DNA of 63,361 bases from Deltaproteobacteria bacterium. GTDB lineage: Bacteria > Desulfobacterota > Dissulfuribacteria > Dissulfuribacterales > QOAL01. The stretch is from the NCBI GenBank assembly GCA_015494395.1, contig WGBG01000011.1, forward strand, positions 1 through 63,361, read 5' to 3'. Made by a program: the position numbers and the translations under genes. Shown in pieces: positions 1 to 13,402 of this stretch (the first letter of the stretch is position 1; every line of letters begins with the position of its first letter). The notes beneath the pieces are model-generated. The model saw only the letters and a list, made by a program, of their open reading frames with translations. It had not been told where the DNA came from and did not search any database.

Positions 1-556
1 AATCAGACCTGTATCTTGCAAAAACACGTGAGAAATCAAGGGCTACCTTGCAAACTGCCTCATCAAACTCGTAACTCTCCATGACAAACACACCTTGTTT
101 ATCATACTTTTTACCGTCCAATTTATATACCTTTGCTACAAGCTCATCCGGATAAACAAGAACATAATATTTAACCTTTTCCCTCTCATATATGTCAAAT
201 TTATATTTCTCGTCCCGCAATGCGGTGGATTTGCTGATAACTTCAACTATAATTTCAGGTGGTCTGGTAAGAAATCTTTCATTGGTTTCGCCACAAATCA
301 GGACAACATCCGGACGAAGAACGGTGTCTTCGGCAATTTTGTAATCTATCTCCCCCAAGACTTCACACTTGGGGCAAGCCTCAACCTGATTGCCAAGCAG
401 CCTGGCTATCTCATAAGCCAGGGCTTGATGTATCCGGAGCGGCGCTGGAACCATCGCGCAGGCTATCCCGTCTATCAATTCCCATCTTCCTTCCCACTCC
501 ACATAGTCATCGTAAGTGTAGTGAGGTAAGTATTCTTTTTGTAGCATTCTCATCAT
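1..556 (-). CDS. Uma2-family (DUF820) restriction-endonuclease-fold protein; the 3' end runs off the window
   Basis: Hand translation of the minus strand from the ATG at 556 stays open to position 2 with no stop: MMRMLQKEYLPHYTYDDYVEWEGRWELIDGIACAMVPAPLRIHQALAYEIARLL..RPDVVLICGE..PEIIVEVISKSTALRDEKYKFDIYEREKVKYYVLVYPDE. This shows the Uma2 hallmarks. It is missing from the ORF track because no stop lies in the window. The listed 95..529 + ORF is its antisense shadow. Confidence 0.75.
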   Translation of the reverse strand, partial: MMRMLQKEYLPHYTYDDYVEWEGRWELIDGIACAMVPAPLRIHQALAYEIARLLGNQVEACPKCEVLGEIDYKIAEDTVLRPDVVLICGETNERFLTRPPEIIVEVISKSTALRDEKYKFDIYEREKVKYYVLVYPDELVAKVYKLDGKKYDKQGVFVMESYEFDEAVCKVALDFSRVFARYRSD

Positions 557-649
557 GTTGTCCCTTTCCTGACTCCGTCAAAACCTGGCATGAGCGGGGG
601 ATAAAATTCAACTTTAGATCATATACAGAATTCCTGCACCTAGATTGAG

Positions 650-2359
650 CTATAGTGTCCTAACCCATACCTTTTTGCCATCTGACACCACCACGATCCT
701 GATAACATTTTCAAATCCTTGTGCCTCAAGCTCCTTTGCATATACCCTGGTATTTATCTGCTCCACGGCTTCCTTAATTGCCTTCTCCGGCTCCTCTTTA
801 TAAAAACCGGTTATGCTCTTCATCTCCATGAGGATGGCCGGCCTTGTCCTGTCATGACGGGGGATAATGAGAATATCATACCTGCCATATCCAAGCTCAC
901 GGTTGGAGCTGATCTCATACTCGTTTCCGAGATTCAGCAGCAGTCCGAGGACAAAGGCCTGATACACTGCCTCAGGATTCTTGCCCTTGGTATCAAAAAA
1001 GGAAAGGGTGGTTATCACGAACTCGTTCAGTAGACGCTCAAACTGGTCAAGGTCGCCTTTTACCAGGGCATTTAACATTGTAACAAGTTTACGGTTACCG
1101 AAGGATTCTTCAAGCCAGGAAGCAATAATATTCTCAAATATATATCTAACCTCCTCGTTTGGAACAGTTAGACGGCATTTCAGTAGCCGAGGGGCAGGAA
1201 TTTCCTCAATGCACTTCAAGTAACCACTGAAAAAGAAAAGACTGTAGATATACCTGGCTTTGCTTTTGATCTCAGGGAACACGATATTCTTGTCTATTAC
1301 AGATTCAATTGACTGTCCTGCTATCAGTTTTTCAATATTTTCCCTTACCTCCAATCCTCCATCTATAATAAGTTCTTTAATTAGAGCATTGGAGGAGGTA
1401 TTGGCCCAGTAGGGCTCTGGATGGTCGGGACGCTGATTGATGAAATTAAGTATGGACCAGGGATTGAAAATGGTGTTATCCCCAAATCTGTAGCCATTGT
1501 ACCAGGAATCCACCTCGTGAATGCGGTCTTCCAGTTCATAATCTACAAGTAGTGAATCCAGTTCATTCCTGGTAATGCCGAACTTGTCAGAAAATGGTCT
1601 TTCAAGAATCGTATAGACATCCAGATTGTTCAGGTCGGAAAATATGCTCTCCCGCGCCACCCGGAGTATGCCGGTTATAACCCCCTTGTAAACATGTGGA
1701 TTATCCTTGAGCCCGCCGGAAAGCAACCCTCGCATGAAGGAGATCATCTCGTCATAGTAGCCATACTGCCATGATGCATGAATCGGGGTGTCATACTCGT
1801 CAATGAGAATTACGGGAGGAACTCCGTGCGTTTCATGCAGAAACCTGCTTAAGGTCTTTAGTGACTCTTCATAATACTCAGGTGCCCCCTCCTCATTAAT
1901 TATCCTGCCTAATATCTTGAACGAGCCATCCAAAGATTCATCTGCCGATAAATGCCTTTCTATCTCCGAGGCTATAATGCGTTTAAGGCTGAATAAAGCT
2001 GAATCAAAAGTGGTTTTTTTAACATCCTTGAAGGTCAGGAAAATAACCGGATATCTGGCGAAATGTTCCTGAAACTCCCGGGTATCCCTGACAGCAAGAC
2101 CATCAAACAGCTTCTCCGCGCGTGCATTCTCCTCTGCAGATTCATGACGCTCAAAAAAATACCGGAGCATGGACAGATTTAAGGTCTTACCAAAACGCCT
2201 GGGACGGGGGATAAGAAAAATTTCCGATCCTGCCTTTATCACCTCCTGGATAAAAAGGGACTTGTCAATAAAAAGCATCCCTCCTTCCCTGAGCTTGCGG
2301 AAATCACTTATGCCAATGCCTATGCGTTTTTTCATTACCTTCACGCCAAAATCAAGCAA
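650..2359 (-). CDS. AAA-ATPase-like domain protein with a C-terminal PD-(D/E)XK nuclease domain (predicted-ATPase/PDDEXK_9 architecture)
   Basis: The N-terminus IGISDFRKLREGGMLFIDKSLFIQEVI..PRPRRFGKTLNLSML is typical of the predicted AAA-ATPase family. The C-terminus GYGRYDILIIPR..AILMEMKS gives a D..E-x-K nuclease signature. The true start is probably the MKKR codon at 2335. Confidence 0.75.
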   Translation of the reverse strand: MLDFGVKVMKKRIGIGISDFRKLREGGMLFIDKSLFIQEVIKAGSEIFLIPRPRRFGKTLNLSMLRYFFERHESAEENARAEKLFDGLAVRDTREFQEHFARYPVIFLTFKDVKKTTFDSALFSLKRIIASEIERHLSADESLDGSFKILGRIINEEGAPEYYEESLKTLSRFLHETHGVPPVILIDEYDTPIHASWQYGYYDEMISFMRGLLSGGLKDNPHVYKGVITGILRVARESIFSDLNNLDVYTILERPFSDKFGITRNELDSLLVDYELEDRIHEVDSWYNGYRFGDNTIFNPWSILNFINQRPDHPEPYWANTSSNALIKELIIDGGLEVRENIEKLIAGQSIESVIDKNIVFPEIKSKARYIYSLFFFSGYLKCIEEIPAPRLLKCRLTVPNEEVRYIFENIIASWLEESFGNRKLVTMLNALVKGDLDQFERLLNEFVITTLSFFDTKGKNPEAVYQAFVLGLLLNLGNEYEISSNRELGYGRYDILIIPRHDRTRPAILMEMKSITGFYKEEPEKAIKEAVEQINTRVYAKELEAQGFENVIRIVVVSDGKKVWVRTL

Positions 2360-2397: not shown

Positions 2398-3405
2398 TCA
2401 GGAAATTTCTGTAGAACCCTTCATATTGATAAAAAACTTTACCGTTTCAGCAATACCTTCCTCCAGATTCACGCGACATTTCCAGCCAAGCATGGCCTCG
2501 GCCTTGCCGGTATCGGAAAAATTCCTCTTCACATCGCCTGGACGGGGCCCAGCCATTCTTATTTCCGGCCGTCCCAGTGCCTGATCTTCCATAGCACCTG
2601 AAACCATCTCGGCTATCTCAAGCACCGTAGTCTCCCGGCTGGTTGCTATCTGGAAGGTCTCTCCGCCGATACCGGGCCTGGTGGCAGAGAGCACAACGGC
2701 ATCGATCAGGTCATCAATATAGATGAAATCCCTTGTCTGTGTACCATCACCATAGATCTCAAGATGCTTTCCGGCCAGGGCATTTTTTATAAACCTCGCC
2801 ACCACACTGCCCTTGTGGATTGAGCCAGGGCCATAAACATTACCAAAACGAAGCGCCACTGTTTCGAGACCAAAACTTTTGTAATAGGCAGAACAGTACC
2901 CCTCACCGGCCAACTTACTGGCCCCGTATGGCGATACTGGATGCGGGGGCAACTCCTCGTGTATAGGCGGCTCCACCTCACCGGCCGGAGCACCTGAAGA
3001 GGCGAAAACGAAACGGGCGGCACCGGCCCCGCGCGCGGCTTCAAGCATGTTAAAGGTTCCCACTACATTGCACTCCATATCCAGCCTTGGGTTATCAATA
3101 GAGGCGGGCACCCCCGTATTTGCCGCAAAGTGAACTACTACATCCATTCCACTACAGCACAAGGCACATACATCGGGATCACGGATATCACCTACCACCA
3201 GTGTCACTCCTGGCAGGGATCCTGCGGACAAATCTCCTGGTTCCTTTTCCACAAACCGGCAGACCTCGCCCAGATCATCCCTTCCACCCACCGAAAGGTT
3301 GTCGAGGACCCGCACGGAAGCGGCTATCTCCTCTGAAAGAAGTCGCCTTATAAGTGCAGTACCCAGGAATCCGCCCCCCCCTGTAATCAGCCAGTTCAAC
3401 GCCAC
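2398..3405 (-). CDS. NAD-dependent sugar-nucleotide epimerase/dehydratase (GalE-like extended SDR)
   Basis: GGGGFLGTAL Rossmann motif, and YGASK (YxxxK) catalytic motif after an SSGA serine. It overlaps the upstream gene by 10 nt, which suggests an operon. Confidence 0.8.
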   Translation of the reverse strand: MALNWLITGGGGFLGTALIRRLLSEEIAASVRVLDNLSVGGRDDLGEVCRFVEKEPGDLSAGSLPGVTLVVGDIRDPDVCALCCSGMDVVVHFAANTGVPASIDNPRLDMECNVVGTFNMLEAARGAGAARFVFASSGAPAGEVEPPIHEELPPHPVSPYGASKLAGEGYCSAYYKSFGLETVALRFGNVYGPGSIHKGSVVARFIKNALAGKHLEIYGDGTQTRDFIYIDDLIDAVVLSATRPGIGGETFQIATSRETTVLEIAEMVSGAMEDQALGRPEIRMAGPRPGDVKRNFSDTGKAEAMLGWKCRVNLEEGIAETVKFFINMKGSTEIS

Positions 3406-4550
3406 TTTATCCCCCTTAATATCCTGTTTGGCTCTATCCTGTCACTGTGGCGCTCTACCACTGCAAACATCCCATGGAGCACTTCATCAGTGAGCAGGCA
3501 CGGGGTCAGCCCCAGTTCCCTTAACCCGGAGTACACCGGATTATAATAATGCTCCTCTTTCTCCACCCTGGGATTCTCGATATGACTTACTTCCACTCCA
3601 TACCCACGCTCACGGCCCACCTTGACCACCTTTTCCGCAAGCTCGTTCACCGTAAAGGTCTCAGTAACCTGGTTAAAGATTCGCAGTTCCCCCTCAGCCG
3701 GAGGGTTTTCCATGGCAAGGCCTACACAACGGATGGTGTCTCTTATATTTATATATCCCCGGGTCTGGCCGCCCTTGCCGTAAATTGTAAGCGGCACCCC
3801 GGCCACGGCCTGTACCACGAAACGGTTGAGCACGGTGCCGAAAATCTCATCATAATTGAAAGTGGTGCCCAAACGCTGATCCATTTCGGTCTCATCCGTG
3901 CCGATACCATACACCGGACCCTGCTGGAGATCTGTAACCCGAAGGCCCCAGGTGCGCACATAAAACCAGAGCATATCGGTGTCCTGTATCTTGGTGGTGT
4001 GGTAAAAGGAGCTGGCCTGCCGGGGAAACAGGAAACGGTCCCTGCGTCCCTTATGCTCTATCTCTATCCATCCCTCCTCAATATCGATATTAGGGGTGCC
4101 ATACACCCCCATGGTGCCTAACTTGATGATATGACACCGGGGGCAATTCTCATACACGGCCCAGGCCACGTTCTGTGTGGCCTGCAGGTTGTTTCGCAGG
4201 GTAAGGCTTGCGGCAGCGTGGTTCAGCATGGAATATGGGGCCGACGGCTGCTCGGCGTAATGAACTATTGCCTCGGGTGAAAACTCCCGGAACAGGTATG
4301 AAAGAAAATGGTAATCGCAACAATCGCCTATGCGCACATCTATACTGAGGCCGCTCACGTCTTTCCAGATCCTTGCCCGCTCATGAAGATTTGGCGGGAT
4401 AAAAAGCGACTCCACATCATGCCTGCGGCAAAGATCGCGGCGCAGATAGTTATCCACGGCAACTACCTGGTGACCACCTGCGGAAAAATTCATGGCCGTA
4501 GGCCAACCCAGATACCCATCAGCGCCCAGGATCACCACCCGCATCACCAT
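3396..4550 (-). CDS. sqdB: UDP-sulfoquinovose synthase (SQD1/SqdB/Agl3 family)
   Basis: It appears colinear with plant SQD1 as I recall that sequence: GADGYLGWPTA, EQPSAPYSM, KLGTMGVYGTPNIDIEEGW, QASSFYHTTK (the SQD1-specific Y-H-x-x-K), DLQQGPVYG..TDETE, LNRFVVQAVAGVPLTIYGKGGQTRGYINIRDT, NPRVEKEEHYYN. Confidence 0.75.
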   Translation of the reverse strand: MVMRVVILGADGYLGWPTAMNFSAGGHQVVAVDNYLRRDLCRRHDVESLFIPPNLHERARIWKDVSGLSIDVRIGDCCDYHFLSYLFREFSPEAIVHYAEQPSAPYSMLNHAAASLTLRNNLQATQNVAWAVYENCPRCHIIKLGTMGVYGTPNIDIEEGWIEIEHKGRRDRFLFPRQASSFYHTTKIQDTDMLWFYVRTWGLRVTDLQQGPVYGIGTDETEMDQRLGTTFNYDEIFGTVLNRFVVQAVAGVPLTIYGKGGQTRGYINIRDTIRCVGLAMENPPAEGELRIFNQVTETFTVNELAEKVVKVGRERGYGVEVSHIENPRVEKEEHYYNPVYSGLRELGLTPCLLTDEVLHGMFAVVERHSDRIEPNRILRGIKWR

Positions 4551-5656
4551 CCCTCCTCTTCGCGTTCCCCTGGCCAGTAGCGCCTGCCTGGATGATGCTC
4601 TCCCAGATCCACGGTCAACAGATCGTGCTCCTTCAGGAAATTCCGCAGGCCATCTCTGCTCAAGGGTTTGATGTTGGCAGAGATATAAGGATCTGTTACC
4701 GAGGTTTTGATTACGTCGGGATAATCATAATTTATCTGCCTGTATATACCCCGGAAAGCAGGCAGTACGGCAAAGTATTCCCTGAGCTCCAGTGAACGCC
4801 GTGTCTCCTCGCTGCTCATCAACTCCTCATAGAGCTTTTCTCCTGGTTTTGCCCCAATAGTCCTTATTTCTATCCCATCTGGCTTGAAACCGAATACCGG
4901 GGCCAGCTCCTCGATCATCACCTGGGCGAGATCCCTGATCCGTATTACCGACATCTTGGTGATAAACACCTCTCCCCCCCTGGCAATCCTTGCCGAATCT
5001 ATGACCAGGCGAACCGCCTGAGAGATACTCATAATGAAACGGGTCATCTCCGGATCAGTCAAAGTGACCGGGCCACCATCCCTGATCTGTCTGATAAATA
5101 TGGGGATTACCGACCCGCGTGATCCCAGCACATTTCCGAACCTGGTTGAAGCAAACCGTGTTCCATGCGCGGCTGCGCTGCTGTTAGCCGCTGTCATGAT
5201 CCGCTCGCCCATAAGTTTTGAAGTACCCATGACACTGGTCGGGTTAACTGCCTTGTCCGTACTGGTGAATATGACCAGTTCCACCCGGTTGGAACAGGCG
5301 GCAGAGATGATATTCTGTACTCCAATTATATTGGTCTGCACAGCCTCGTAGGGGGAACGCTCACACAGGATTACATGCTTGAATGCCGCTGCATGAAAGA
5401 CCACATCCACGCCTTCCATCATACGGGTAAGCTTGTCCCGATCTCGGATATCGGTGAGGAAGAAGGAGGCCCGGCGGTCATTGATAAACCGCTGCTCAAG
5501 GAAAAAAAGCTCGCTCTCGTTGTTGTCAAGGGCAACGAGCCTGGAGATGCCGTGATCATGCATAAGAAGCTGCCGGACCAATTCTTTGCCAACGGTCCCG
5601 CATGCACCGGTAACCAGCACTTTTTTTCCCATCAATGAATAGCAGTTATCCACCAA
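4544..5656 (-). CDS. Polysaccharide biosynthesis protein of the CapD/PseB/FlaA1 type (UDP-HexNAc 4,6-dehydratase-like SDR)
   Basis: VLVTGACGTVGKEL Rossmann motif, TDKAVNPTSVMGTSK (YxxxK variant of the Polysacc_synt_2 family), FGNVLGSRGSVIP. Confidence 0.7.
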   Translation of the reverse strand: MVDNCYSLMGKKVLVTGACGTVGKELVRQLLMHDHGISRLVALDNNESELFFLEQRFINDRRASFFLTDIRDRDKLTRMMEGVDVVFHAAAFKHVILCERSPYEAVQTNIIGVQNIISAACSNRVELVIFTSTDKAVNPTSVMGTSKLMGERIMTAANSSAAAHGTRFASTRFGNVLGSRGSVIPIFIRQIRDGGPVTLTDPEMTRFIMSISQAVRLVIDSARIARGGEVFITKMSVIRIRDLAQVMIEELAPVFGFKPDGIEIRTIGAKPGEKLYEELMSSEETRRSLELREYFAVLPAFRGIYRQINYDYPDVIKTSVTDPYISANIKPLSRDGLRNFLKEHDLLTVDLGEHHPGRRYWPGEREEEGW

Positions 5657-5854
5657 GTACCCTCTTCACACGCTTCAGATCCCGCGACTTTTTCTTCGAC
5701 CATTCATTACATGAACAAAAAAATCATAATACTCGGCGGACATTCGTTGTGGAATTTTTCAGATGGAGGAAGGCACGGAAAAGATTTATACTCGGCCCTA
5801 TGCCAGCTATTACAACGAAGCACCGGACTGCTCTTATTCTGGAAGTTTCCAGCA

Positions 5855-5886
5855 ATCACTTATTGACCTTATCACTTATTGACCTT
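5855..5886. repeat. Perfect 16-bp tandem direct repeat (ATCACTTATTGACCTT x2) in the 289-bp gap inside the glycan locus
   Basis: Read directly: 5855-5870 and 5871-5886 are identical. It lies about 200 nt upstream of the CapD/PseB-like gene start (5656, minus strand). Confidence 0.9.
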
Positions 5887-5945
5887 AAGTCATAAATTGA
5901 GTGATTGAAACTATAGTTACCTGACTGAGCTGAAAACAAAGCCCC

Positions 5946-7208
5946 TCAGGCTCTTGTAACAATTTCCTCGTATAAAGAAATATATTTTTTCGCTACTATC
6001 CTGCTGTCAAACTCTCTCAAGACTTTTTCCCTGGCATTTTTTCCAATAAGTTTCTGCCGCGTATCGTCTTCCACAACCCACTCTATTCCTCTGACTAAGT
6101 CTTTTGCATCAAAAGGTACGGCCTTGTAACCTGTTTTTTTATGATCCACAATATCTTTAGGACCTGTTGCATCAAAGCAGACAACAGGAGTCCTGCACGC
6201 CATTGCTTCAACCAATGTCTTTCCAAAAGCCTCCATCGTTGAACTGGCAACAAAAACATCTGCTGCAGAATATGCCAAACGCAGTGACACCACGTCATGC
6301 AAAAAATCAAGCATCTTATATTCGAAGCGAAGGTTATGCCTAATCTCACTATCTATCTTACCGAAAAAAAGCAAAAAAATATCATCATCTTTAACATATC
6401 GTAACGCCTCAAGATACAAATTAAATCCTTTCCAAGGATCGCGTAAAGAGTGAGCGCCAGCAAGAACAATTTTTTTATCCTTGGGCAGGCCAAGAATATC
6501 ACGCGAAATTTCTTTATTAACAGGCCTAAAGGCATGAGTATCAATATTATTCGATATTGTCCTAACATCAAATTCTTTAAACAGTTGGCTATTTCTGGCA
6601 CAATCGCTTAACCAATTACTGATCCCAACTACCTTCATATCTCGAGGCAATCTGTATTTCTTGCGCCATAAAACAAACCGAGATAGATCGTATTTCTTAT
6701 AACTGGAAAGTACTTTGCATGTTCCACAACCAGACTCATAATTATTACAATCAAGTGCATAATGACACCCCCCAGTCACTGGCCACATGTCTCGCATAGT
6801 CCACACAATGGGTTTACTGATCTTAGAAAAATGCTTTATATTGACAAATCCACCATTTATCCAGTGGAAATGTACGATATCAGCCCATTTGTACGCTTCG
6901 GTTTCAATAAAATCAAACCCCACCAAACCACAATGAAATATCACCCTCCTTCGTTGGCGATATAGCATTACAGGAAGAACATCAAGTTGTGACCGTAAAA
7001 CATCTTTGATTTTTTGTTTTCTGGAAACAGCAACACTGGTGACAGTGTCATCCCCAAAAGTGTCCCTTGAGTTTGTTAATATTCTGGAGCTGATGCCTGA
7101 TTTTAACAGTCCTTTGTGAAGCCAATACGCTCCCCTGGCAGCGCCACCATTCAACTCCCCGCCAACAATATGCAGGACCTTAAAATCCTGTGACACAATT
7201 ACCCTCAC
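5946..7208 (-). CDS. Glycosyltransferase family 4 (GT-B, retaining)
   Basis: HIVGGELNGGAARGAYWLH N-terminal motif. C-terminal segment ADVFVASSTMEAFGKTLVEAMACRTPVV (E-x7-E region). Confidence 0.8.
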   Translation of the reverse strand: MRVIVSQDFKVLHIVGGELNGGAARGAYWLHKGLLKSGISSRILTNSRDTFGDDTVTSVAVSRKQKIKDVLRSQLDVLPVMLYRQRRRVIFHCGLVGFDFIETEAYKWADIVHFHWINGGFVNIKHFSKISKPIVWTMRDMWPVTGGCHYALDCNNYESGCGTCKVLSSYKKYDLSRFVLWRKKYRLPRDMKVVGISNWLSDCARNSQLFKEFDVRTISNNIDTHAFRPVNKEISRDILGLPKDKKIVLAGAHSLRDPWKGFNLYLEALRYVKDDDIFLLFFGKIDSEIRHNLRFEYKMLDFLHDVVSLRLAYSAADVFVASSTMEAFGKTLVEAMACRTPVVCFDATGPKDIVDHKKTGYKAVPFDAKDLVRGIEWVVEDDTRQKLIGKNAREKVLREFDSRIVAKKYISLYEEIVTRA

Positions 7209-8652
7209 CTAGTTGAGTGGATAATAATTGATGAAAATTTTTAGCAGGATCTTTCGCCCAAAAAACAGCCTTACTTTTATTCGTTTGTTCAACCCACTGA
7301 TTATAGAAGCTTCTTTTGTGTTTGACCTTTTCAATCAACTCTTGAAATTCTCCTGGTGTGTTAATGATCACAGCAGCATTTTTTTCATGAAGACAAAAGG
7401 CATTGCCAGACTCCTCCAAGTTCAATATTACTGTTGGAACACCTAAACCTACGCTTTCAAAAAGCGTAGTTGAAAATACACTGCAATGAATGTGGGTATC
7501 AGACAGTAATTCATAAAAGGAGGCAGAGGGATCTGCTATTTTTACCTTATTCCCTAGGTTAGAATATCTTTCTATATGTTCACAGGTCTCTAATGGATGC
7601 GGTTTAACTGTTAACAATATATCTTCAAGTGGTAACGGGAGAACCTGCTTCAAAAATACTGATAATTGATTAACTATTATCCACTGTGAACTAATCAAAA
7701 CTTTTAGGGGGGATTGTTTTTGAGTGACCTTGTTACTGAACAAAGTCCTTCTATAGAATTCGATACGAGGAAGACCAATGGCTACAGCATCCTCCCTTTG
7801 GCAGTAATTCAGCTTGGGGAGCAAACTGGAAAAATATTCTCCAAATGTCAAAACCTTATCTGGAAAGGGCAGAACGTATTGATTGTCAATGACTTCTTGC
7901 GCATAAGTGTAGGCCATATGACCGTCATATATAATTCCATGTTGCAGCTCCCAAACAGGAATATTTAAAGATTTGGCCGCCATAATGGCTCCTTCTTTGC
8001 CATACGCACATTCTACCAAAAGCAATGAGGGATTAAGTTGACCTAAAAGCCACTTAAAATATAGACGTTGTGCTATATGACGAGACCAAATAGCATCCCA
8101 TTTTTGTTTACTTATCTCACAATTAGTGCCACTCAAAAAAGTATTTAAAGCTGATAATAATTCATTAACTACCGTTTTTGATTTTTTAAAATCTGGACGA
8201 GCAAAGAATACTGCTAAGGGCAGTAATTTATCATCAATATAAAGCTGATCAGGCTTGAGCCTTTCTCTGTATTTTGTAATTTCATAAAAGGAAAGCATAT
8301 TTTCGATGGGGGGATAAAAAAAATCAAAATAGCAATTTTTATAGCTATCCCCAACATAATCTCTTAGCCTATCTGTAGACGTAAGACATAAAATATCTAC
8401 CTGATCCTTAAGAGATACGGCACGGTAGAGCCTTCGTAATGTACCAGGAACTGCGGCAAGCCTGTTCATCCACCTCTGAACCTTATTTGAAGCTACCCTG
8501 GCTCTCTTATTAAAATTTCCTTCACTAATTTTTAGCCATTCAGCTACAGTAAATCTAAAAACAGGCCAAACAGAATAACCATCTACTTGGTATTGAAAAG
8601 GATCAAACTGTTTTTCAAAATTAAATATGACTTCTTTGATATTAAGACTCAT
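7180..8652 (-). CDS. Hypothetical protein; possibly a GT-B ulosonic-acid (sialyl/Kdo-type) transferase carrying an HP motif
   Basis: Long ORF packed tightly in the operon, overlapping both neighbours. The only recognisable signature is LLTVKPHPLE. This resembles the HP motif shared by bacterial sialyltransferase and KpsC/KpsS-type families. The product call is weak. Confidence 0.4.
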   Translation of the reverse strand: MSLNIKEVIFNFEKQFDPFQYQVDGYSVWPVFRFTVAEWLKISEGNFNKRARVASNKVQRWMNRLAAVPGTLRRLYRAVSLKDQVDILCLTSTDRLRDYVGDSYKNCYFDFFYPPIENMLSFYEITKYRERLKPDQLYIDDKLLPLAVFFARPDFKKSKTVVNELLSALNTFLSGTNCEISKQKWDAIWSRHIAQRLYFKWLLGQLNPSLLLVECAYGKEGAIMAAKSLNIPVWELQHGIIYDGHMAYTYAQEVIDNQYVLPFPDKVLTFGEYFSSLLPKLNYCQREDAVAIGLPRIEFYRRTLFSNKVTQKQSPLKVLISSQWIIVNQLSVFLKQVLPLPLEDILLTVKPHPLETCEHIERYSNLGNKVKIADPSASFYELLSDTHIHCSVFSTTLFESVGLGVPTVILNLEESGNAFCLHEKNAAVIINTPGEFQELIEKVKHKRSFYNQWVEQTNKSKAVFWAKDPAKNFHQLLSTQLGEGNCVTGF

Positions 8653-10093
8653 TATCTATCAACGATGGAGAGGTGGTTAAAAAATATTTCTTGAAAAAAA
8701 TAAATATAATGCAAACAAAACTTACCAAAATACTACTTTTAATCAACTCAACTTGAAGTGTAATCTCATGAAATTTTAATAATTCGTAAGATATGACCAG
8801 GCATGAGAGAACGATTCCAACCTTTAATATATTGTACCCTGGATTGAATAAGCGTAAGCTTATCAAATAAACTGACACTGCCATAAACATAAAAGAGATG
8901 ACGGTAGCATAGGCTGCACCCATGATACCGTATTTTGGTATAAGTAAAAAATTCAGCATTATATTTAAAATAGCCGCCGTACCTGTAGTAAAAGGAAGGA
9001 ATTTCGTCTTTTTAAAGAATAGGATTGGATTCACAGCAAAGAAGTACAATCCATTTATGACATAACTGAAAATAATAATGGGTACTATTTGGGCTGATTT
9101 GTGAAATTTAGCAGGTGTTAAAAACAGTAAAAGCTCCTTGGACCACATACTGCCAATCAAACATATTGTACCTATTACCCCCAACCAGATATAAAAAACT
9201 CTTTTAACATGCCAACTATGATTCAAATTTTTATCTTTCATCAAGTCATAATAATTTGGTGCCCAAGCCTGATTAAATGAGTTAACTAAGACACTCATAA
9301 CCATGCCTACCTGATAACCTAATGTATAAATTCCAAGATCAGCCAATGATACATACCGTTCAAGTATGACACGATCTATAAAGTTCAGCGACACTGAGGC
9401 CAATAAGTGAAATACTACAGGAAGGCCGAAGGAAAGAGCATATTTTAGTTTATTGAAAGAAAATTTTAGCCGGAAATTTTTAGCGTAATCCCAATAAAAT
9501 AGGGTAAAAAAAAGAAAATTCCCTATTAAAAGGCCTTTAATTTGACCGAGGGCCCCTTCCCTTAATACGACTATAAAATATATTATACAAGTTGTAGTTA
9601 TTAGAAAATTAACATATTGAAGAGTGGCACATCTCTTAAAATTCTTTCTGCATAGGTAATAACTGATAACAATTTGGTTAAAAATTTGAAAAAATACTAT
9701 CCAAAGGATAAGAATCCAATACGGATTAAAAGGGATTGACTTTTTATCTATAAAAGGCCCAAAAACATTTTCTCCGTAAAAGGTGAAAAATGAGCATACA
9801 AGAAACAAGACAACTAATAAGTATATGTTTATACTGTATAAAAAACTTCCCATTTCTTCTGGTTTATATTTATAGTCGTAATAGAATCGAGTTTGGGCTC
9901 CATAAAACCCAAACATTAAAATAGTAGACAAAACCTGCATGATTACTTGCAGGTATCCTATTATTCCATAATCAGTTGTAGTTAGAAATCTGGTATATAT
10001 TGGAATGAGAAGAAAACCGGATGCTTTAGTAAGAATTTGTGCAATAGCGAATGTTATTCCACCCTTTACTACACTTCCAAAAGAATATGACAT
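8642..10093 (-). CDS. Wzx-type oligosaccharide flippase (MOP/polysaccharide biosynthesis protein family)
   Basis: 483 aa that are highly hydrophobic with many predicted TM segments. The position inside a glycan operon fits. Confidence 0.8.
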   Translation of the reverse strand: MSYSFGSVVKGGITFAIAQILTKASGFLLIPIYTRFLTTTDYGIIGYLQVIMQVLSTILMFGFYGAQTRFYYDYKYKPEEMGSFLYSINIYLLVVLFLVCSFFTFYGENVFGPFIDKKSIPFNPYWILILWIVFFQIFNQIVISYYLCRKNFKRCATLQYVNFLITTTCIIYFIVVLREGALGQIKGLLIGNFLFFTLFYWDYAKNFRLKFSFNKLKYALSFGLPVVFHLLASVSLNFIDRVILERYVSLADLGIYTLGYQVGMVMSVLVNSFNQAWAPNYYDLMKDKNLNHSWHVKRVFYIWLGVIGTICLIGSMWSKELLLFLTPAKFHKSAQIVPIIIFSYVINGLYFFAVNPILFFKKTKFLPFTTGTAAILNIMLNFLLIPKYGIMGAAYATVISFMFMAVSVYLISLRLFNPGYNILKVGIVLSCLVISYELLKFHEITLQVELIKSSILVSFVCIIFIFFKKYFLTTSPSLIDNES

Positions 10094-10101
10094 CAGTTAT
10101 T

Positions 10102-10680
10102 TTAATGGAATTGCTGCGCCTTTTTCAATTTTAAGTAATGTTCTACGTCTCTATACTTAAAAACTGAAGCTGGATGCCCTCCAGCAATGGCATACTTTGG
10201 AATATCAGAGACAACACACGAACCAGCCTGAATTATAGCACCCTCACCTATACATACCCCACCTAAAATGATCACACGGCTGCCAATCCATACATTGTCG
10301 TCAATATTTATATCCTTATAGATATAAGTATCATCGTAGGGTATGGCTTTACCTCGATCATAATTATGAATATGCGTTATAAAAAGACAATCCTCTCCGG
10401 AATGAAAATTGTTACCAATTGTAACTCTTCCATTGCCTCTTATAATGAGTCCATTAAAGTTTGTATTGCGCCCCAAAAAAGTATTACGTGTAAAAACACA
10501 CCTGTTATTTACCTTTAACGGCAATGAATAACTGCCAACCTGACTCATTGCCCTCAGTAAAAAGATTTTCCTTTTATATTCGAGAAAAATACGATCAGGT
10601 AGCGAAAAGATTAAATTAATGCACCTAAGTAAAAATCTGTTGCGTTCCATTGGTGATTTTGATGCCGTAAATCCACACAA
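10102..10680 (-). CDS. Left-handed beta-helix (hexapeptide-repeat) acetyltransferase
   Basis: Hexapeptide repeats: VWIGSRVIILGGVCIGEGAIIQAGSCVVSDIPKYAIAGGHPA. It starts 2 nt after the NeuB-family stop. Confidence 0.75.
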   Translation of the reverse strand: MCGFTASKSPMERNRFLLRCINLIFSLPDRIFLEYKRKIFLLRAMSQVGSYSLPLKVNNRCVFTRNTFLGRNTNFNGLIIRGNGRVTIGNNFHSGEDCLFITHIHNYDRGKAIPYDDTYIYKDINIDDNVWIGSRVIILGGVCIGEGAIIQAGSCVVSDIPKYAIAGGHPASVFKYRDVEHYLKLKKAQQFH

Positions 10681-10681
10681 A

Positions 10682-11734
10682 CTAACTTAACATTTCCCAT
10701 GTAATGATCTCATCTTCTTCTATATCATTCTTTACTGTTCTACCAACCACTATGTCAAAAAATGCAGGGGAAATTCCTGTACCGGGTCTTTTTGCTGTCA
10801 TCATCTCCTCGGTCAGAGTGGTGCCAGCTGGTATATTCTTTGTCGCAACCAAACTTCTGCGGGCATATTTTCTAGAATTTTGTTCCCCATCAGTAACAAC
10901 TTTGTCCCGTTTACCCATCATTGCAGCAAAATATCTCTGCATGGAAATAAACTCCCGAACATCATCAGGATCCATAGCATGATAATGATCATTACCAGGT
11001 AATGACTTATCAAGTGTATAGTGTTTTTCCAGAATATCTGCTCCCTTGACCCAGGCAGCCAACATAGACAGACAATTATGAGCTGGAGAAACATGATCTG
11101 ACCAGCCAATTGTTACATCTGGAAATACTGATTTCAAATAGGGAATAGTTTCAAGGTTGGCATGTTCTGCTGGGGTAGGATACTCCAGAACACAATGCAG
11201 CAAAGCAACTTGTTCAGCTCCTGCTTCTGCGATGATTCTTAATGCTTCATCTATCTCTGATATATAGGATGCTCCTGTGGAAAGCAAAATTGGCTTATTT
11301 TTTTTTGCAATTTTGCGTAATAACGGATAATTAGTGATATCCGCAGACGCAACCTTATAAACAGGCATAAATTCATCCAAAAAATCTGCAAAATGCAAAT
11401 CAAAAGGAGTTGAAGCGAAAAGAATTCCTTTTTGCTGGCACCGCCTGGCTAATTTTCTATACTCCTCATCACCGAAATTATCGTGTTTTTTAAACAGTTC
11501 AAATTGACTAGTTGTAGGCTCTTTTTGAGTATCCCAATATGCCGGACTGTATTTGCTAGCCAATGTTTCAGCCTTATAACTTTGAAATTTTATCATTTGA
11601 GCGCCTGCCGCGGCTGCAGCATCTATCATTTCATAAGCTGTATCCAATGACCCTTCATGGTTAACACCGGCTTCAAGTATCAGAAACGGATTGGCACGAT
11701 CAATTTTAATTCCGGCAATTTCGGTCATACGCAT
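10682..11734 (-). CDS. Nonulosonic acid synthase of the NeuB/PseI/LegI family, with a C-terminal SAF domain
   Basis: FLILEAGVNHEGS, KFQSYKAE, LLSTGAS, GWSDH, LEKHYTLDK, and a C-terminal RRSLVATKNIPAGTTLTEEMMTAKRPGTGISP SAF-like segment. Confidence 0.85.
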   Translation of the reverse strand: MRMTEIAGIKIDRANPFLILEAGVNHEGSLDTAYEMIDAAAAAGAQMIKFQSYKAETLASKYSPAYWDTQKEPTTSQFELFKKHDNFGDEEYRKLARRCQQKGILFASTPFDLHFADFLDEFMPVYKVASADITNYPLLRKIAKKNKPILLSTGASYISEIDEALRIIAEAGAEQVALLHCVLEYPTPAEHANLETIPYLKSVFPDVTIGWSDHVSPAHNCLSMLAAWVKGADILEKHYTLDKSLPGNDHYHAMDPDDVREFISMQRYFAAMMGKRDKVVTDGEQNSRKYARRSLVATKNIPAGTTLTEEMMTAKRPGTGISPAFFDIVVGRTVKNDIEEDEIITWEMLS

Positions 11735-11746
11735 ATTCTACTTTCC

Positions 11747-13402
11747 TTATTTAACGGATTTGCCTAAAATAATGTCCCATACCCTATCAATGCCGCTTTT
11801 AAAATCAAAACTGGTTAGTGATTGGTGCATTTTTTTTCTTAAAATTTGTGATCCGATTATTTCTTTAAATGCCTGTTCAAAAACCCCAAATGTCAATAAG
11901 TTTGACAAGCCAAGATTTATAATTCCGAGTTCTTGATTAGCAAACACATGTCTGACTTCCCTTTCATTCTGATTTATAACGATCATTGGGATTCCCATGG
12001 CAGCCAATTCAAAAACTGTACGTCCTCCTGACGTAATAGCTATATCTGCCTCCGCCATGTATTTACTTATAATGTTAGTGTCTGTAATTATCTGGATCTT
12101 ACCATTTAATTTGTCTATATTTTTTTCTAATTGTGATAAATGCTTATAGCCAGGTCCTACAATTACGGTTAGTTCTAAGTCTTTTTTTATCTTTAGAACC
12201 CATTTGATTATCTTCTCAGTCAGGTTGGATGGATCTGTCCCACCAAACAGGAGTAGAATGTTTTTTACCTTCTCCTTAATGTTGATAGTTTTCGCATTAT
12301 AAAATTCGTCACGGAGACAGACATAGTCCGGTCCGGAAAAAATATGGTCACTTTTACGTGACACTTCAGAACCATACATTGCGTTAATAACTGCATCTGC
12401 TACGGTCTGTCCCTGACCCAAATCCTCAAAATTAATCACCCTGAAACCACTTTGTTTTAGAGCTGTTACATAATCAAGATTTGTATCTAGAATATCATTA
12501 ATGACTATATCGGGGTTGCATCTTTTAATTAGGGACACTTCATTTTCAGATGAGGGATCAAATTCTATAATTGGGTAGAAGCGGGACCTAATTTTTTTAA
12601 TGCCTGGGCGAGATTTATTGCTTATTACAAATAAGTGTTCGTGATCTATACGGCTATCAGCCAACATAAGGCATCTATAAATATGGCCCAGTCCTATTTC
12701 ATTATATCCTTCTACACGATAAAGAATCCTCAGTCGGGCCATCTGTTTTTCTACCAGCCACCAGTCAAACCTATCATCAATATCTACAGATTCTATTTTG
12801 TCACATTCTACGATTCCGACATTTCCACCAAATCTTGTTCCATGTCTCAGCTGATCTCGGGTGCAAACAACTATACCGCCTGTTTCCCTGTAATGTTTTG
12901 GTAAATACTGCCTGTTAAGCCTTTTGGAATAGTCGGGAATGGGGTCGCCATTCTCATTTAGCTTCCACCTTAAATGGACATCTTCGGTCACAGAAACAAC
13001 AGTATCTTTCTTCTCATCAATACACTTTTTAACAGCTTTTTGTATGGTTTCAGGTCTTAATAAAGGAGAGGTAGCCTGAAGTGTCACAACAATATCGACA
13101 ATCCTTTTTGTTTGTTTTTCATACTCCTCAACAGCGTCAACAATAACCTCATCCAAACCTACCTCATCACTGGCTAGATGCGCAGACCTTCTAATAATTA
13201 ACGCTCCATATTCTTTACCAATGTATGCAAGTTCTTCGTTATCAGTGGATACAACCACATCTGAAAAAGAATGTGACTCAAAAGCGGCTCTAAGCACATA
13301 GGACATTAATGGTTTGCCATGAAGTAAGCGGGCATTTTTACGAGGTATGCCTTTTGAACCGCCTCGCACGGGAATTATTGCTATAATGTTAAATTCTGCC
13401 AT
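11747..13402 (-). CDS. Fusion protein: N-terminal CMP-nonulosonate cytidylyltransferase (NeuA/PseF-like) plus a C-terminal PseG-like UDP-sugar hydrolase/GT-B domain
   Basis: N-terminus: IAIIPVRGGSKGIPRKN (CTP_transf_3). From about residue 225: RVEGYNEIGLGHIYRCLMLAD and ADIAITSGGRTVFELAAMGIPMIVI (PseG/GT28-C-like). Confidence 0.75.
   Translation of the reverse strand: MAEFNIIAIIPVRGGSKGIPRKNARLLHGKPLMSYVLRAAFESHSFSDVVVSTDNEELAYIGKEYGALIIRRSAHLASDEVGLDEVIVDAVEEYEKQTKRIVDIVVTLQATSPLLRPETIQKAVKKCIDEKKDTVVSVTEDVHLRWKLNENGDPIPDYSKRLNRQYLPKHYRETGGIVVCTRDQLRHGTRFGGNVGIVECDKIESVDIDDRFDWWLVEKQMARLRILYRVEGYNEIGLGHIYRCLMLADSRIDHEHLFVISNKSRPGIKKIRSRFYPIIEFDPSSENEVSLIKRCNPDIVINDILDTNLDYVTALKQSGFRVINFEDLGQGQTVADAVINAMYGSEVSRKSDHIFSGPDYVCLRDEFYNAKTINIKEKVKNILLLFGGTDPSNLTEKIIKWVLKIKKDLELTVIVGPGYKHLSQLEKNIDKLNGKIQIITDTNIISKYMAEADIAITSGGRTVFELAAMGIPMIVINQNEREVRHVFANQELGIINLGLSNLLTFGVFEQAFKEIIGSQILRKKMHQSLTSFDFKSGIDRVWDIILGKSVK

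Follow-up and report, generated by a model that had tools for sequence, protein, structure and literature searches.

Which sugar is made by a surface-polysaccharide locus that harbors a relative of SQD1, the plant uridine diphosphate (UDP)-sulfoquinovose synthase, is the question raised by a stretch of 63,361 nucleotides from a Deltaproteobacteria bacterium (contig WGBG01000011.1 of assembly GCA_015494395.1, positions 1 to 63,361 of the forward strand), which in its full length is here called the window. The gene in question forms part of a compact cassette encoding three members of the extended short-chain dehydrogenase/reductase (SDR) superfamily. Our analysis places its product in an unstudied branch of the SQD1 family that has a dehydratase of its own and is found in surface-polysaccharide loci, and hence it probably makes a C-sulfonated surface sugar. 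For the window, we consider it probable, if by no means certain, that the predicted cassette yields a C6-sulfonated nucleotide sugar destined for a glycan. Neither the families of the enzyme and its partner nor the type of locus are new in themselves; the novelty lies in a widespread and distinct SQD1 clade that is tied, within polysaccharide loci, to a Pen-like dehydratase. The cassette comprises the following genes:

4544 to 5656, minus strand: Pen-like dehydratase of the Polysacc_synt_2 family (PF02719, 326 bits), CapD/PseB-like, predicted to act on UDP-N-acetylhexosamine (UDP-HexNAc), with the motifs STDK...MGTSK.
3396 to 4550, minus strand: the SQD1-like gene.
2398 to 3405, minus strand: GalE/WbpP-like (GalE/RmlB-like) extended SDR, here SDR3, a probable nucleotide-sugar 4-epimerase by its PDB matches.

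The original prediction had described the product as a protein of 384 amino acids colinear with SQD1 and bearing the motifs SFYHTTK and GTMGVYGTPNIDIEEG. Both motifs are indeed found in the translation of the open reading frame (ORF) at 3396 to 4550, which encodes 384 amino acids from an ATG start and, as had been left unsaid, lies on the minus strand. When all PDB chains are searched with phmmer, the structures of Arabidopsis SQD1 (1QRR, 1I24 and 1I2B) come first at about 4e-128, and residues 3-384 of the window protein align to residues 2-383 of 1QRR in one gap-free stretch with about 50% identity and no indel; SDRs other than SQD1 reach at most 35 bits. The N-terminal GxxGxxG site for NAD of extended SDRs is present (ILGADGYLGW), as are the catalytic motifs KLGTMGVYG and SFYHTTK, and Thr145, Tyr182, Lys186 and the accompanying His183 (SQD1 numbering) are all retained. 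The Y-H-x-x-K signature that had been taken as diagnostic occurs throughout the family, and what the enzyme makes cannot be read from it alone. The NCBIfam equivalog for UDP-sulfoquinovose synthase, NF041015, matches the protein from end to end with 430.6 bits, short of its cut-off of 575. A representative of the SQD1 type (P0124), which scores 540 bits against 1QRR, also misses this cut-off with 474 bits; the threshold is thus narrower than the function and uninformative on membership, and the shortfall was dropped as evidence against it.

The boundaries of the gene are equally suggestive of an integral cassette. A GGAGG box stands immediately upstream of the ATG at the third codon (4544), and most homologues measure 381-382 amino acids, so that the real start is probably this ATG, giving a product of 382 residues. 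The same ATG overlaps the stop codon of the upstream dehydratase as TGATG, and the GTG start of the downstream SDR lies within GTGGCGTTGA, overlapping the stop of the SQD1-like gene. As read from these overlaps, the gene is translationally coupled to both the Pen-like dehydratase before it and the GalE-like SDR after it. The dehydratase itself probably starts at the ATG at 5632.

To place the protein within its family, a FastTree phylogeny of 170 members was used, comprising 95 full-length representatives of 50%-identity clusters and the proteins of 80 genome loci, and taking in paralogues from five of the genomes contributing these loci, the SqdB of Sinorhizobium meliloti and plasmid-borne homologues; Agl3, the synthase of Sulfolobus acidocaldarius, was not placed, and the SQD1-type clade was recognized only by the scores of its representatives against 1QRR. 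The window protein falls in a tight and separate group, clade A (support 88, rising to 97 with a sister paralogue included), whose members remain 58-83% identical to it despite spanning the Desulfobacterota, Brocadiia, Myxococcota, Chloroflexota, Actinomycetota, Bacteroidota, Gemmatimonadota and Planctomycetota as well as Alpha- and Gammaproteobacteria. Plant SQD1 belongs to a separate SQD1-type clade that is 43-56% identical to the window protein and has representatives scoring 540 and 611 bits against 1QRR, versus 431 for the window protein, while S. meliloti SqdB belongs to an alphaproteobacterial clade of 37-43% identity. The phylogeny therefore bears out membership of the SQD1/SqdB family and sets the protein outside the SQD1-type and alpha-SqdB clades; the view of it as an orthologue of the SQD1/SqdB-type synthase has to be abandoned. 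Clade A, distinct from both of these clades, contains no experimentally validated synthase, and several genomes carry a clade A copy plus one or two paralogues of other kinds. Judged by its sequence, the gene is an intact SQD1/SqdB-superfamily enzyme of an uncharacterized clade.

Comparison of 88 sequences across the three clades reveals a common catalytic core (T146, M147, Y150, Y183, H184 and K187 are invariant) and eight positions fixed in clade A at which the two validated clades differ from it. The motifs that surround the catalytic residues contain four of them (R101P, L184T, N208M and V211P in SQD1 numbering), yielding the clade A signature EQP / YHTTK / DLxQGPVYG. In Agl3, alanine mutants at H95, R101, M145, E147 and Y148 are inactive or impaired, and R101A is among those that inactivate the enzyme (PMC4388408). 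The window protein keeps the His, Met and Tyr of this set and replaces the Arg by Pro and the Glu by Val. The proline is found in 64 of 64 clade A members, but it is also frequent in other, unvalidated lineages that have no dehydratase partner; the valine (E148V) is a trait of the subclade to which the window protein belongs and recurs in S. meliloti SqdB, which reads GTMGVYG. Neither change thus disqualifies the enzyme, the pair was dropped as a decisive sign of lost function, and R101P is read from the alignment as a clade marker only. By analogy with the wall formed by GalE K84 / WbpP G102, the proline could conceivably make room for an N-acetyl group, an idea that is given no weight as evidence here.

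The most telling feature of clade A is the company it keeps. The original prediction had located the gene correctly between a GalE-like epimerase and a CapD/PseB-like dehydratase, yet the latter turns out to be a conserved partner and not a mere neighbor. Among the 80 clade A loci, a dehydratase homologue (45-76% identical) was found within some 4 kb of the clade A gene in about 77, in most of them directly upstream on the same strand, and an SDR3 homologue (40-75% identical) was found nearby in about half. Clustering of the 1,162 ORFs of these loci brought out nothing else that is conserved, and no glycosyltransferase was conserved with the pair: initiating transferases, sulfotransferases, UDP-glucose dehydrogenases, DegT, Wzx, GT2 and GT4 genes come and go from locus to locus. 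With no glycosyltransferase accompanying the pair, what couples the two genes must be the synthesis of the sugar nucleotide. The 70 partner proteins compared share S[ST]DK...MGxxK, with S[ST]DK itself present in 69. The partner is absent beside the non-clade paralogues of S. meliloti, Pelagovum, Pseudonocardia and Haladaptatus and beside the 41-48% identical copies of Paracoccus and Rubrobacter, two loci having a non-clade copy that adjoins a GT4 gene instead; the 58% identical sister paralogue does have it. The distance matrices of the clade A gene and its partner correlate (Mantel r 0.40, a value reached by none of 999 permutations), and the pairing is retained across many phyla within otherwise variable polysaccharide loci.

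The best solved relative of the partner is 6BWC, which it matches over its full length at 8e-82, as compared to 5e-57 for PseB. Against the PDB, the partner scores 278 bits with Pen, 205 with an FnlA-like enzyme, 197 with both PseB and CapE and 176 with PglF, and Pen also comes first for the partners from Anaerolineae and Saprospiraceae, with leads of 59 and 58 bits. 6BWC is the Pen of Bacillus thuringiensis, a UDP-N-acetylglucosamine (UDP-GlcNAc) 5,6-dehydratase. It sets free UDP-6-deoxy-D-GlcNAc-5,6-ene, whose oxidation at C4 and further processing fall to a second SDR, Pal (PMC8987622). The TDK acid/base pair is present in the partner (STDK). SDR3, on the other hand, has UDP-Glc/GlcNAc 4-epimerases as its best PDB matches (6e-48, versus 5e-38 for Pal, 6BWL), and no dehydratase acid/base pair is found in its sequence; by these similarities it could epimerize either the product or the precursor.

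A C-sulfonated product requires a sulfur donor, and part of the clade A loci appear to encode its supply. Nine of the 80 loci, representing no fewer than five phyla, have a phosphoadenylyl-sulfate (PAPS) reductase within 10 kb of the clade A gene. In five loci the genes form the string CysH-SDR-Pen-SQD, with SDR3 next in four of them, and one further locus reads Pen-SQD-CysH. The single reductase that was checked matches the equivalog for phosphoadenylyl-sulfate reductase with 246 bits (cut-off 154), and fewer than one cysH would be expected by chance among some 1,160 ORFs, a qualitative estimate that assumes about one per few thousand genes and loci that are in fact non-independent. A fourth, generic extended SDR of about 303-340 residues stands between cysH and the Pen-like gene (L044, L054, L082, L083 and L093); it is 27-30% identical to SDR3 where measured, so that the full cassette may have four SDRs. 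The genome containing the window (3.2 Mb, 92% complete, 47.8% GC) encodes DsrA and AprA scoring above curated cut-offs (573 and 934 bits), and its closest relatives are Desulfobulbaceae, all of which supports the earlier suggestion of a sulfate reducer. No true cysH was found in this 92% complete genome, and we infer that the sulfite stems here from dissimilatory adenylyl-sulfate (APS) reductase, while in other loci a co-encoded PAPS reductase would provide it. The proposal that sulfite derives from energy metabolism thus fits the aprA and dsrA genes and the lack of cysH, whereas the implied link with sulfate reduction is not borne out: the cassette is equally at home in aerobes, across aerobic and anaerobic phyla, and its tie to sulfate reduction is incidental, not the raison d'être of the gene.

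Taken together, the three genes would constitute a nucleotide-sugar cassette for a UDP-6-deoxy-6-C-sulfo-hexose with sulfite as the sulfur donor, and the sulfo-hexose would be built into a surface glycan by whichever glycosyltransferases and Wzx the locus in question encodes. How the enzymes share the work is a more tentative matter. Deprived of sulfite, UDP-sulfoquinovose synthases let go of UDP-Glc-5,6-ene (PMC4388408 for Agl3; PMC8987622), and this behavior, together with the release of its own ene by Pen, suggests a division of labor between the partner and the SQD1-like enzyme. The Pen-like enzyme would convert UDP-GlcNAc into free UDP-6-deoxy-GlcNAc-5,6-ene; the SQD1-like enzyme would then oxidize C4, add sulfite to C6 of the resulting enone and re-reduce C4, giving UDP-2-acetamido-2,6-dideoxy-6-sulfo-glucose (UDP-6-sulfo-N-acetylquinovosamine, UDP-6-sulfo-QuiNAc), which the GalE-like SDR may 4-epimerize to the galacto form. 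We advance this hand-off from the Pen-like to the SQD1-like enzyme and on to SDR3 as the likeliest single mechanism, leading to UDP-6-sulfo-QuiNAc, while holding it, taken by itself, to be rather doubtful. Slightly more doubtful still is the encompassing proposition of a split two-enzyme route to an undescribed UDP-N-acetyl-6-sulfoquinovosamine, or its 4-epimer, encoded by a cassette that has been gene-transferred across many phyla and hundreds of species. In either case the product need not be the plain UDP-sulfoquinovose that had been predicted, given a distinct clade that is co-inherited with a Pen-like dehydratase.

Several observations weigh against these proposals. The linkage goes back to a single event at the root of clade A and is thus no case of repeated origin or convergence; the weight lies in its retention through extensive transfer and reshuffling of the surroundings. 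The partner has Met (MGTSK) where Pen has a catalytic Tyr (TDKxnYx3K), as PglF and CapE do, and it may on this account be a 4,6- instead of a 5,6-dehydratase. R101, essential in Agl3, is replaced by Pro throughout clade A. UDP-glucose dehydration by SQD1-type enzymes requires no helper. The sole fused ORFs that join members of the cassette, a Pen::SQD (P0354) and a clade A SQD::SDR3 (P0304), are each represented by one sequence only, in which the domains are truncated, and they may be gene-call artefacts. Finally, our literature search brought up no bacterial polysaccharide reported to contain a C-sulfonated sugar. The same search yielded nothing relevant on sulfoquinovosamine or 6-sulfo-QuiNAc, or on sulfoquinovose in bacterial exopolysaccharides, capsular polysaccharides or O-antigens, nothing relevant on sulfoquinovose in Desulfobulbaceae or cable bacteria, and no paper on the pairing of an SQD1 clade with a Pen-like dehydratase or on a 6-sulfo amino sugar.

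The foremost alternative is that the enzyme is an ordinary UDP-sulfoquinovose synthase, joining UDP-glucose and sulfite for a sulfoquinovose-containing polysaccharide, and that the dehydratase and SDR3 make an unrelated 6-deoxy-HexNAc of the QuiNAc or N-acetylfucosamine (FucNAc) type for the same repeat unit. All catalytic residues and full colinearity with SQD1 are retained, close homologues carry precisely this annotation (JGI, NCBI), a dehydratase followed by a reductase or epimerase is the standard 6-deoxy-HexNAc route, and the Val at the E148 position is shared with the SqdB of the S. meliloti sqdBDC sulfolipid operon. Yet genes for two independent sugars would not be expected to stay adjacent in about 77 of 80 loci while the glycosyltransferases vary, clade A has four substitutions of its own in active-site motifs, including the loss of the arginine whose alanine mutant is inactive in Agl3, and carriers often have a second, canonical-type paralogue, beside a GT4 gene in two loci. 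We thus regard this explanation as unlikely, though with a substantial claim to attention. It is considerably less credible that the enzyme does not sulfonate at all and acts in the manner of Pal on the 5,6-ene, through 4-oxidation and 5,6-reduction to a 4-keto-6-deoxy-HexNAc, or adds a nucleophile other than sulfite. Such a role would be in keeping with the need of B. thuringiensis Pen for a second SDR to process its ene, with the loss of R101 and with the absence of the third SDR from about half of the loci, where the SQD1-like protein is the only SDR beside the partner. It is rendered improbable by the invariance of the His after the catalytic Tyr and of other family-specific blocks, by an identity of about 50% to SQD1 with no indel, and by the true PAPS reductase that forms part of the gene string in several loci unrelated to one another.

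Synthesis of the head group of sulfoquinovosyl diacylglycerol (SQDG), with the nearby GT4 glycosyltransferase in the role of SqdX/SQD2, has little more in its favor than the fact that SqdX and SQD2 belong to the GT4 family and that one GT4 gene lies 1.4 kb away. That gene is located beyond a 289-bp gap in a compositionally different block, it is not conserved beside clade A, its product resembles the GT4 domain (presumed to be SqdX-like) of a SqdB::GT4 fusion only generically, the surroundings are made up of Wzx, NeuB and cytidylyltransferase genes, and in two-copy genomes it is the other paralogue that adjoins a GT4. We regard the SQDG explanation as highly improbable, and the preference for a glycan over SQDG voiced by the original prediction is upheld by the Wzx-type locus and by the finding that no SqdX/SqdD-type partner is conserved with clade A. 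The preferred reading hence remains that of a cassette for a C6-sulfonated nucleotide sugar that enters a glycan.

The surroundings of the cassette within the window are consistent with this destination. The Wzx-dependent glycan locus proposed earlier, with its GT4 gene 1.4 kb from the SQD1-like gene, was found as described, and the regions on either side of the cassette read as follows:

2 to 2359, minus strand: predicted AAA-ATPase/PD-(D/E)XK gene (PF09820 and PF08011) and a small ORF running off the contig end.
5657 to 5945: intergenic gap of 289 bp, a composition break between the cassette and the remaining glycan locus.
5946 to 7208, minus strand: GT4 glycosyltransferase, 1.4 kb from the SQD1-like gene and not specifically SqdX-like.
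7180 to 8652, minus strand: protein of 490 amino acids without a Pfam domain, weakly matched by TIGR04396 (surface carbohydrate biosynthesis) and by the BFO_1060-type glycosyltransferase model.
8642 to 10093, minus strand: Wzx-type flippase (Polysacc_synt).
10102 to 10680, minus strand: hexapeptide-repeat acetyltransferase.
10682 to 11734, minus strand: NeuB-family nonulosonic acid synthase (NeuB 337 bits, PseI 249 bits, both below the cut-offs).
11747 to 13402, minus strand: fusion of a PseF-like cytidylyltransferase and a PseG-like UDP-sugar hydrolase.

The three-SDR cassette (2398-5656) has a GC content of 52-54%, versus 32-41% for the block that begins with the GT4 gene and ends with the cytidylyltransferase fusion (5946-13402) and 47.8% for the genome, a contrast that points to a mosaic locus with separate origins for its two halves; a separate promoter may reside in the gap at 5657-5945. 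The local GT4 was dismissed as an SqdX, as its similarity to the GT4 domain of the fusion mentioned above (25% over 177 residues) is generic for GT4. The glycan locus adjoins the contig edge, and on that side the AAA-ATPase/PD-(D/E)XK gene comes next after the cassette. The weak TIGR04396 and BFO_1060 matches make the 490-residue protein a candidate nonulosonic-acid transferase.

No DegT-type aminotransferase is found within the glycan locus of the window, where the pseudaminic/legionaminic acid (Pse/Leg) pathway set is thus incomplete. Complete Pse-type sets exist elsewhere in the genome, on the contigs C156 (1899-7440) and C180 (12371-18696), the former grouping PseB-like, DegT, PseG-like and NeuB-like genes, and the set in the window hence represents a third, incomplete one. 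One might imagine that the presumed sulfo-HexNAc is condensed into a 9-sulfo nonulosonic acid by the NeuB and the PseG/PseF-like fusion, with no aminotransferase involved, but this would be a very improbable outcome in the window locus. NeuB homologues are near the cassette in just 6 of 81 loci, and nonulosonic acid is therefore not the general fate of the product. The SQD1-like gene itself has homologues in 10 of the 69 genomes of the order, with an identity of at least 59% in 9 cases, and is absent from the other four species of the genus, a patchy occurrence that fits a variable surface trait or antigen.

Gene fusions and inserts in the wider family provide additional context. Fusions of a PAPS reductase to SqdB (CysH::SqdB) form more than 40 clusters of proteins with 673-725 amino acids and an alpha-type SqdB (P0373-P0410; e.g. 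Nocardioides), and on a Pelagovum plasmid cysH comes immediately after sqdB (L108:5001-6907); a synthase with a private sulfite supply thus appears, from these arrangements, to exist in the wider SqdB family. SQD1-type proteins fused to a GalE-like domain (P0303, with ten members, and P0339) mean that an epimerase working with the family is not unique to clade A, and suggest a possible UDP-sulfofucose route, sulfofucose being a sugar with no known biosynthetic route (PMC12421959, 2025). The SqdB::GT4 fusion (SqdB::SqdX-like) is P0344. These three kinds, CysH::SqdB, SqdB::GT4 and SQD1-type::GalE-like, represent genuine fusions of two domains. Homologues of 715-750 residues, entertained as Pen::SQD1 fusions, were ruled out as such: they are SQD1 homologues with inserts at three sites, many of them with PF14528. 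More broadly, SQD1-family proteins of 715-1108 residues (P0123, P0142, P0164, P0259 and many others) have inserts of about 150-400 residues after residue 145 (GT|MG), around 185-194 or at 236/237, all of them conserved sites, and P0259 has two. Many of these inserts carry the LAGLIDADG domain PF14528 and hence look like inteins.

To date, sulfoquinovose has been described in the sulfolipids of thylakoids and rhizobia and in the N-glycans of archaea. If the cassette does what we propose, sulfonated sugars would be far commoner on bacterial surfaces than thought, made by a portable cassette in at least several hundred species, among them anammox bacteria, sulfate reducers, Saprospiraceae, Rubrobacter and Rhodobacterales from the sea. 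Sulfoglycolytic and sulfofucolytic bacteria would then gain a source of substrate beyond phototrophs, and a permanently anionic, sulfatase-resistant building block would be added to glycan chemistry. Should the split route also be true, C-sulfonated amino sugars would be a common and overlooked component of bacterial surface polysaccharides, and the organosulfonate cycle would have to be extended by a new sink and source. With its pairing of dehydratase and SQD1, the cassette also lends itself to testing whether a single SDR reaction cycle can be shared by two enzymes.

Set against known systems, the cassette combines familiar parts in a different manner. With plant SQD1 (1QRR) and cyanobacterial SqdB (EC 3.13.1.1) the window protein shares the extended-SDR fold, its length, the GxxGxxG site and residues T145, M146, Y149, Y182, H183 and K186. 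Unlike these enzymes, clade A is paired with a Pen-like dehydratase instead of SqdX/SQD2 and resides in polysaccharide loci, and it departs from SQD1 in the fixed R101P, L184T, N208M and V211P, with E148V added in the subclade of the window protein. The SqdB of S. meliloti and Rhodobacter (sqdBDC) is a member of the same family with the same Val at the E148 position (GTMGVYG), but the S. meliloti enzyme is 39% identical, keeps R101, serves lipid synthesis and is followed by a glycosyltransferase gene (at the sqdD position), whereas the gene in the window is preceded by a dehydratase. Agl3 of S. acidocaldarius is a family member with a UDP-sulfoquinovose product that goes into N-glycans and not into a lipid, and its release of UDP-Glc-5,6-ene without sulfite shows the ene to be a competent intermediate; R101, essential there, is absent here. 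Agl3 is not known to have a dehydratase partner. The Pen/Pal system of the pseudaminic acid route in B. thuringiensis is alike in the TDK pair of the partner and in the logic of a dedicated dehydratase that hands an ene to a second SDR. It differs in that the partner has Met for the Tyr of Pen, that the third SDR is closer to 4-epimerases than to Pal, that an aminotransferase is absent from the window locus, and that the second enzyme is not Pal but a homologue of SQD1.

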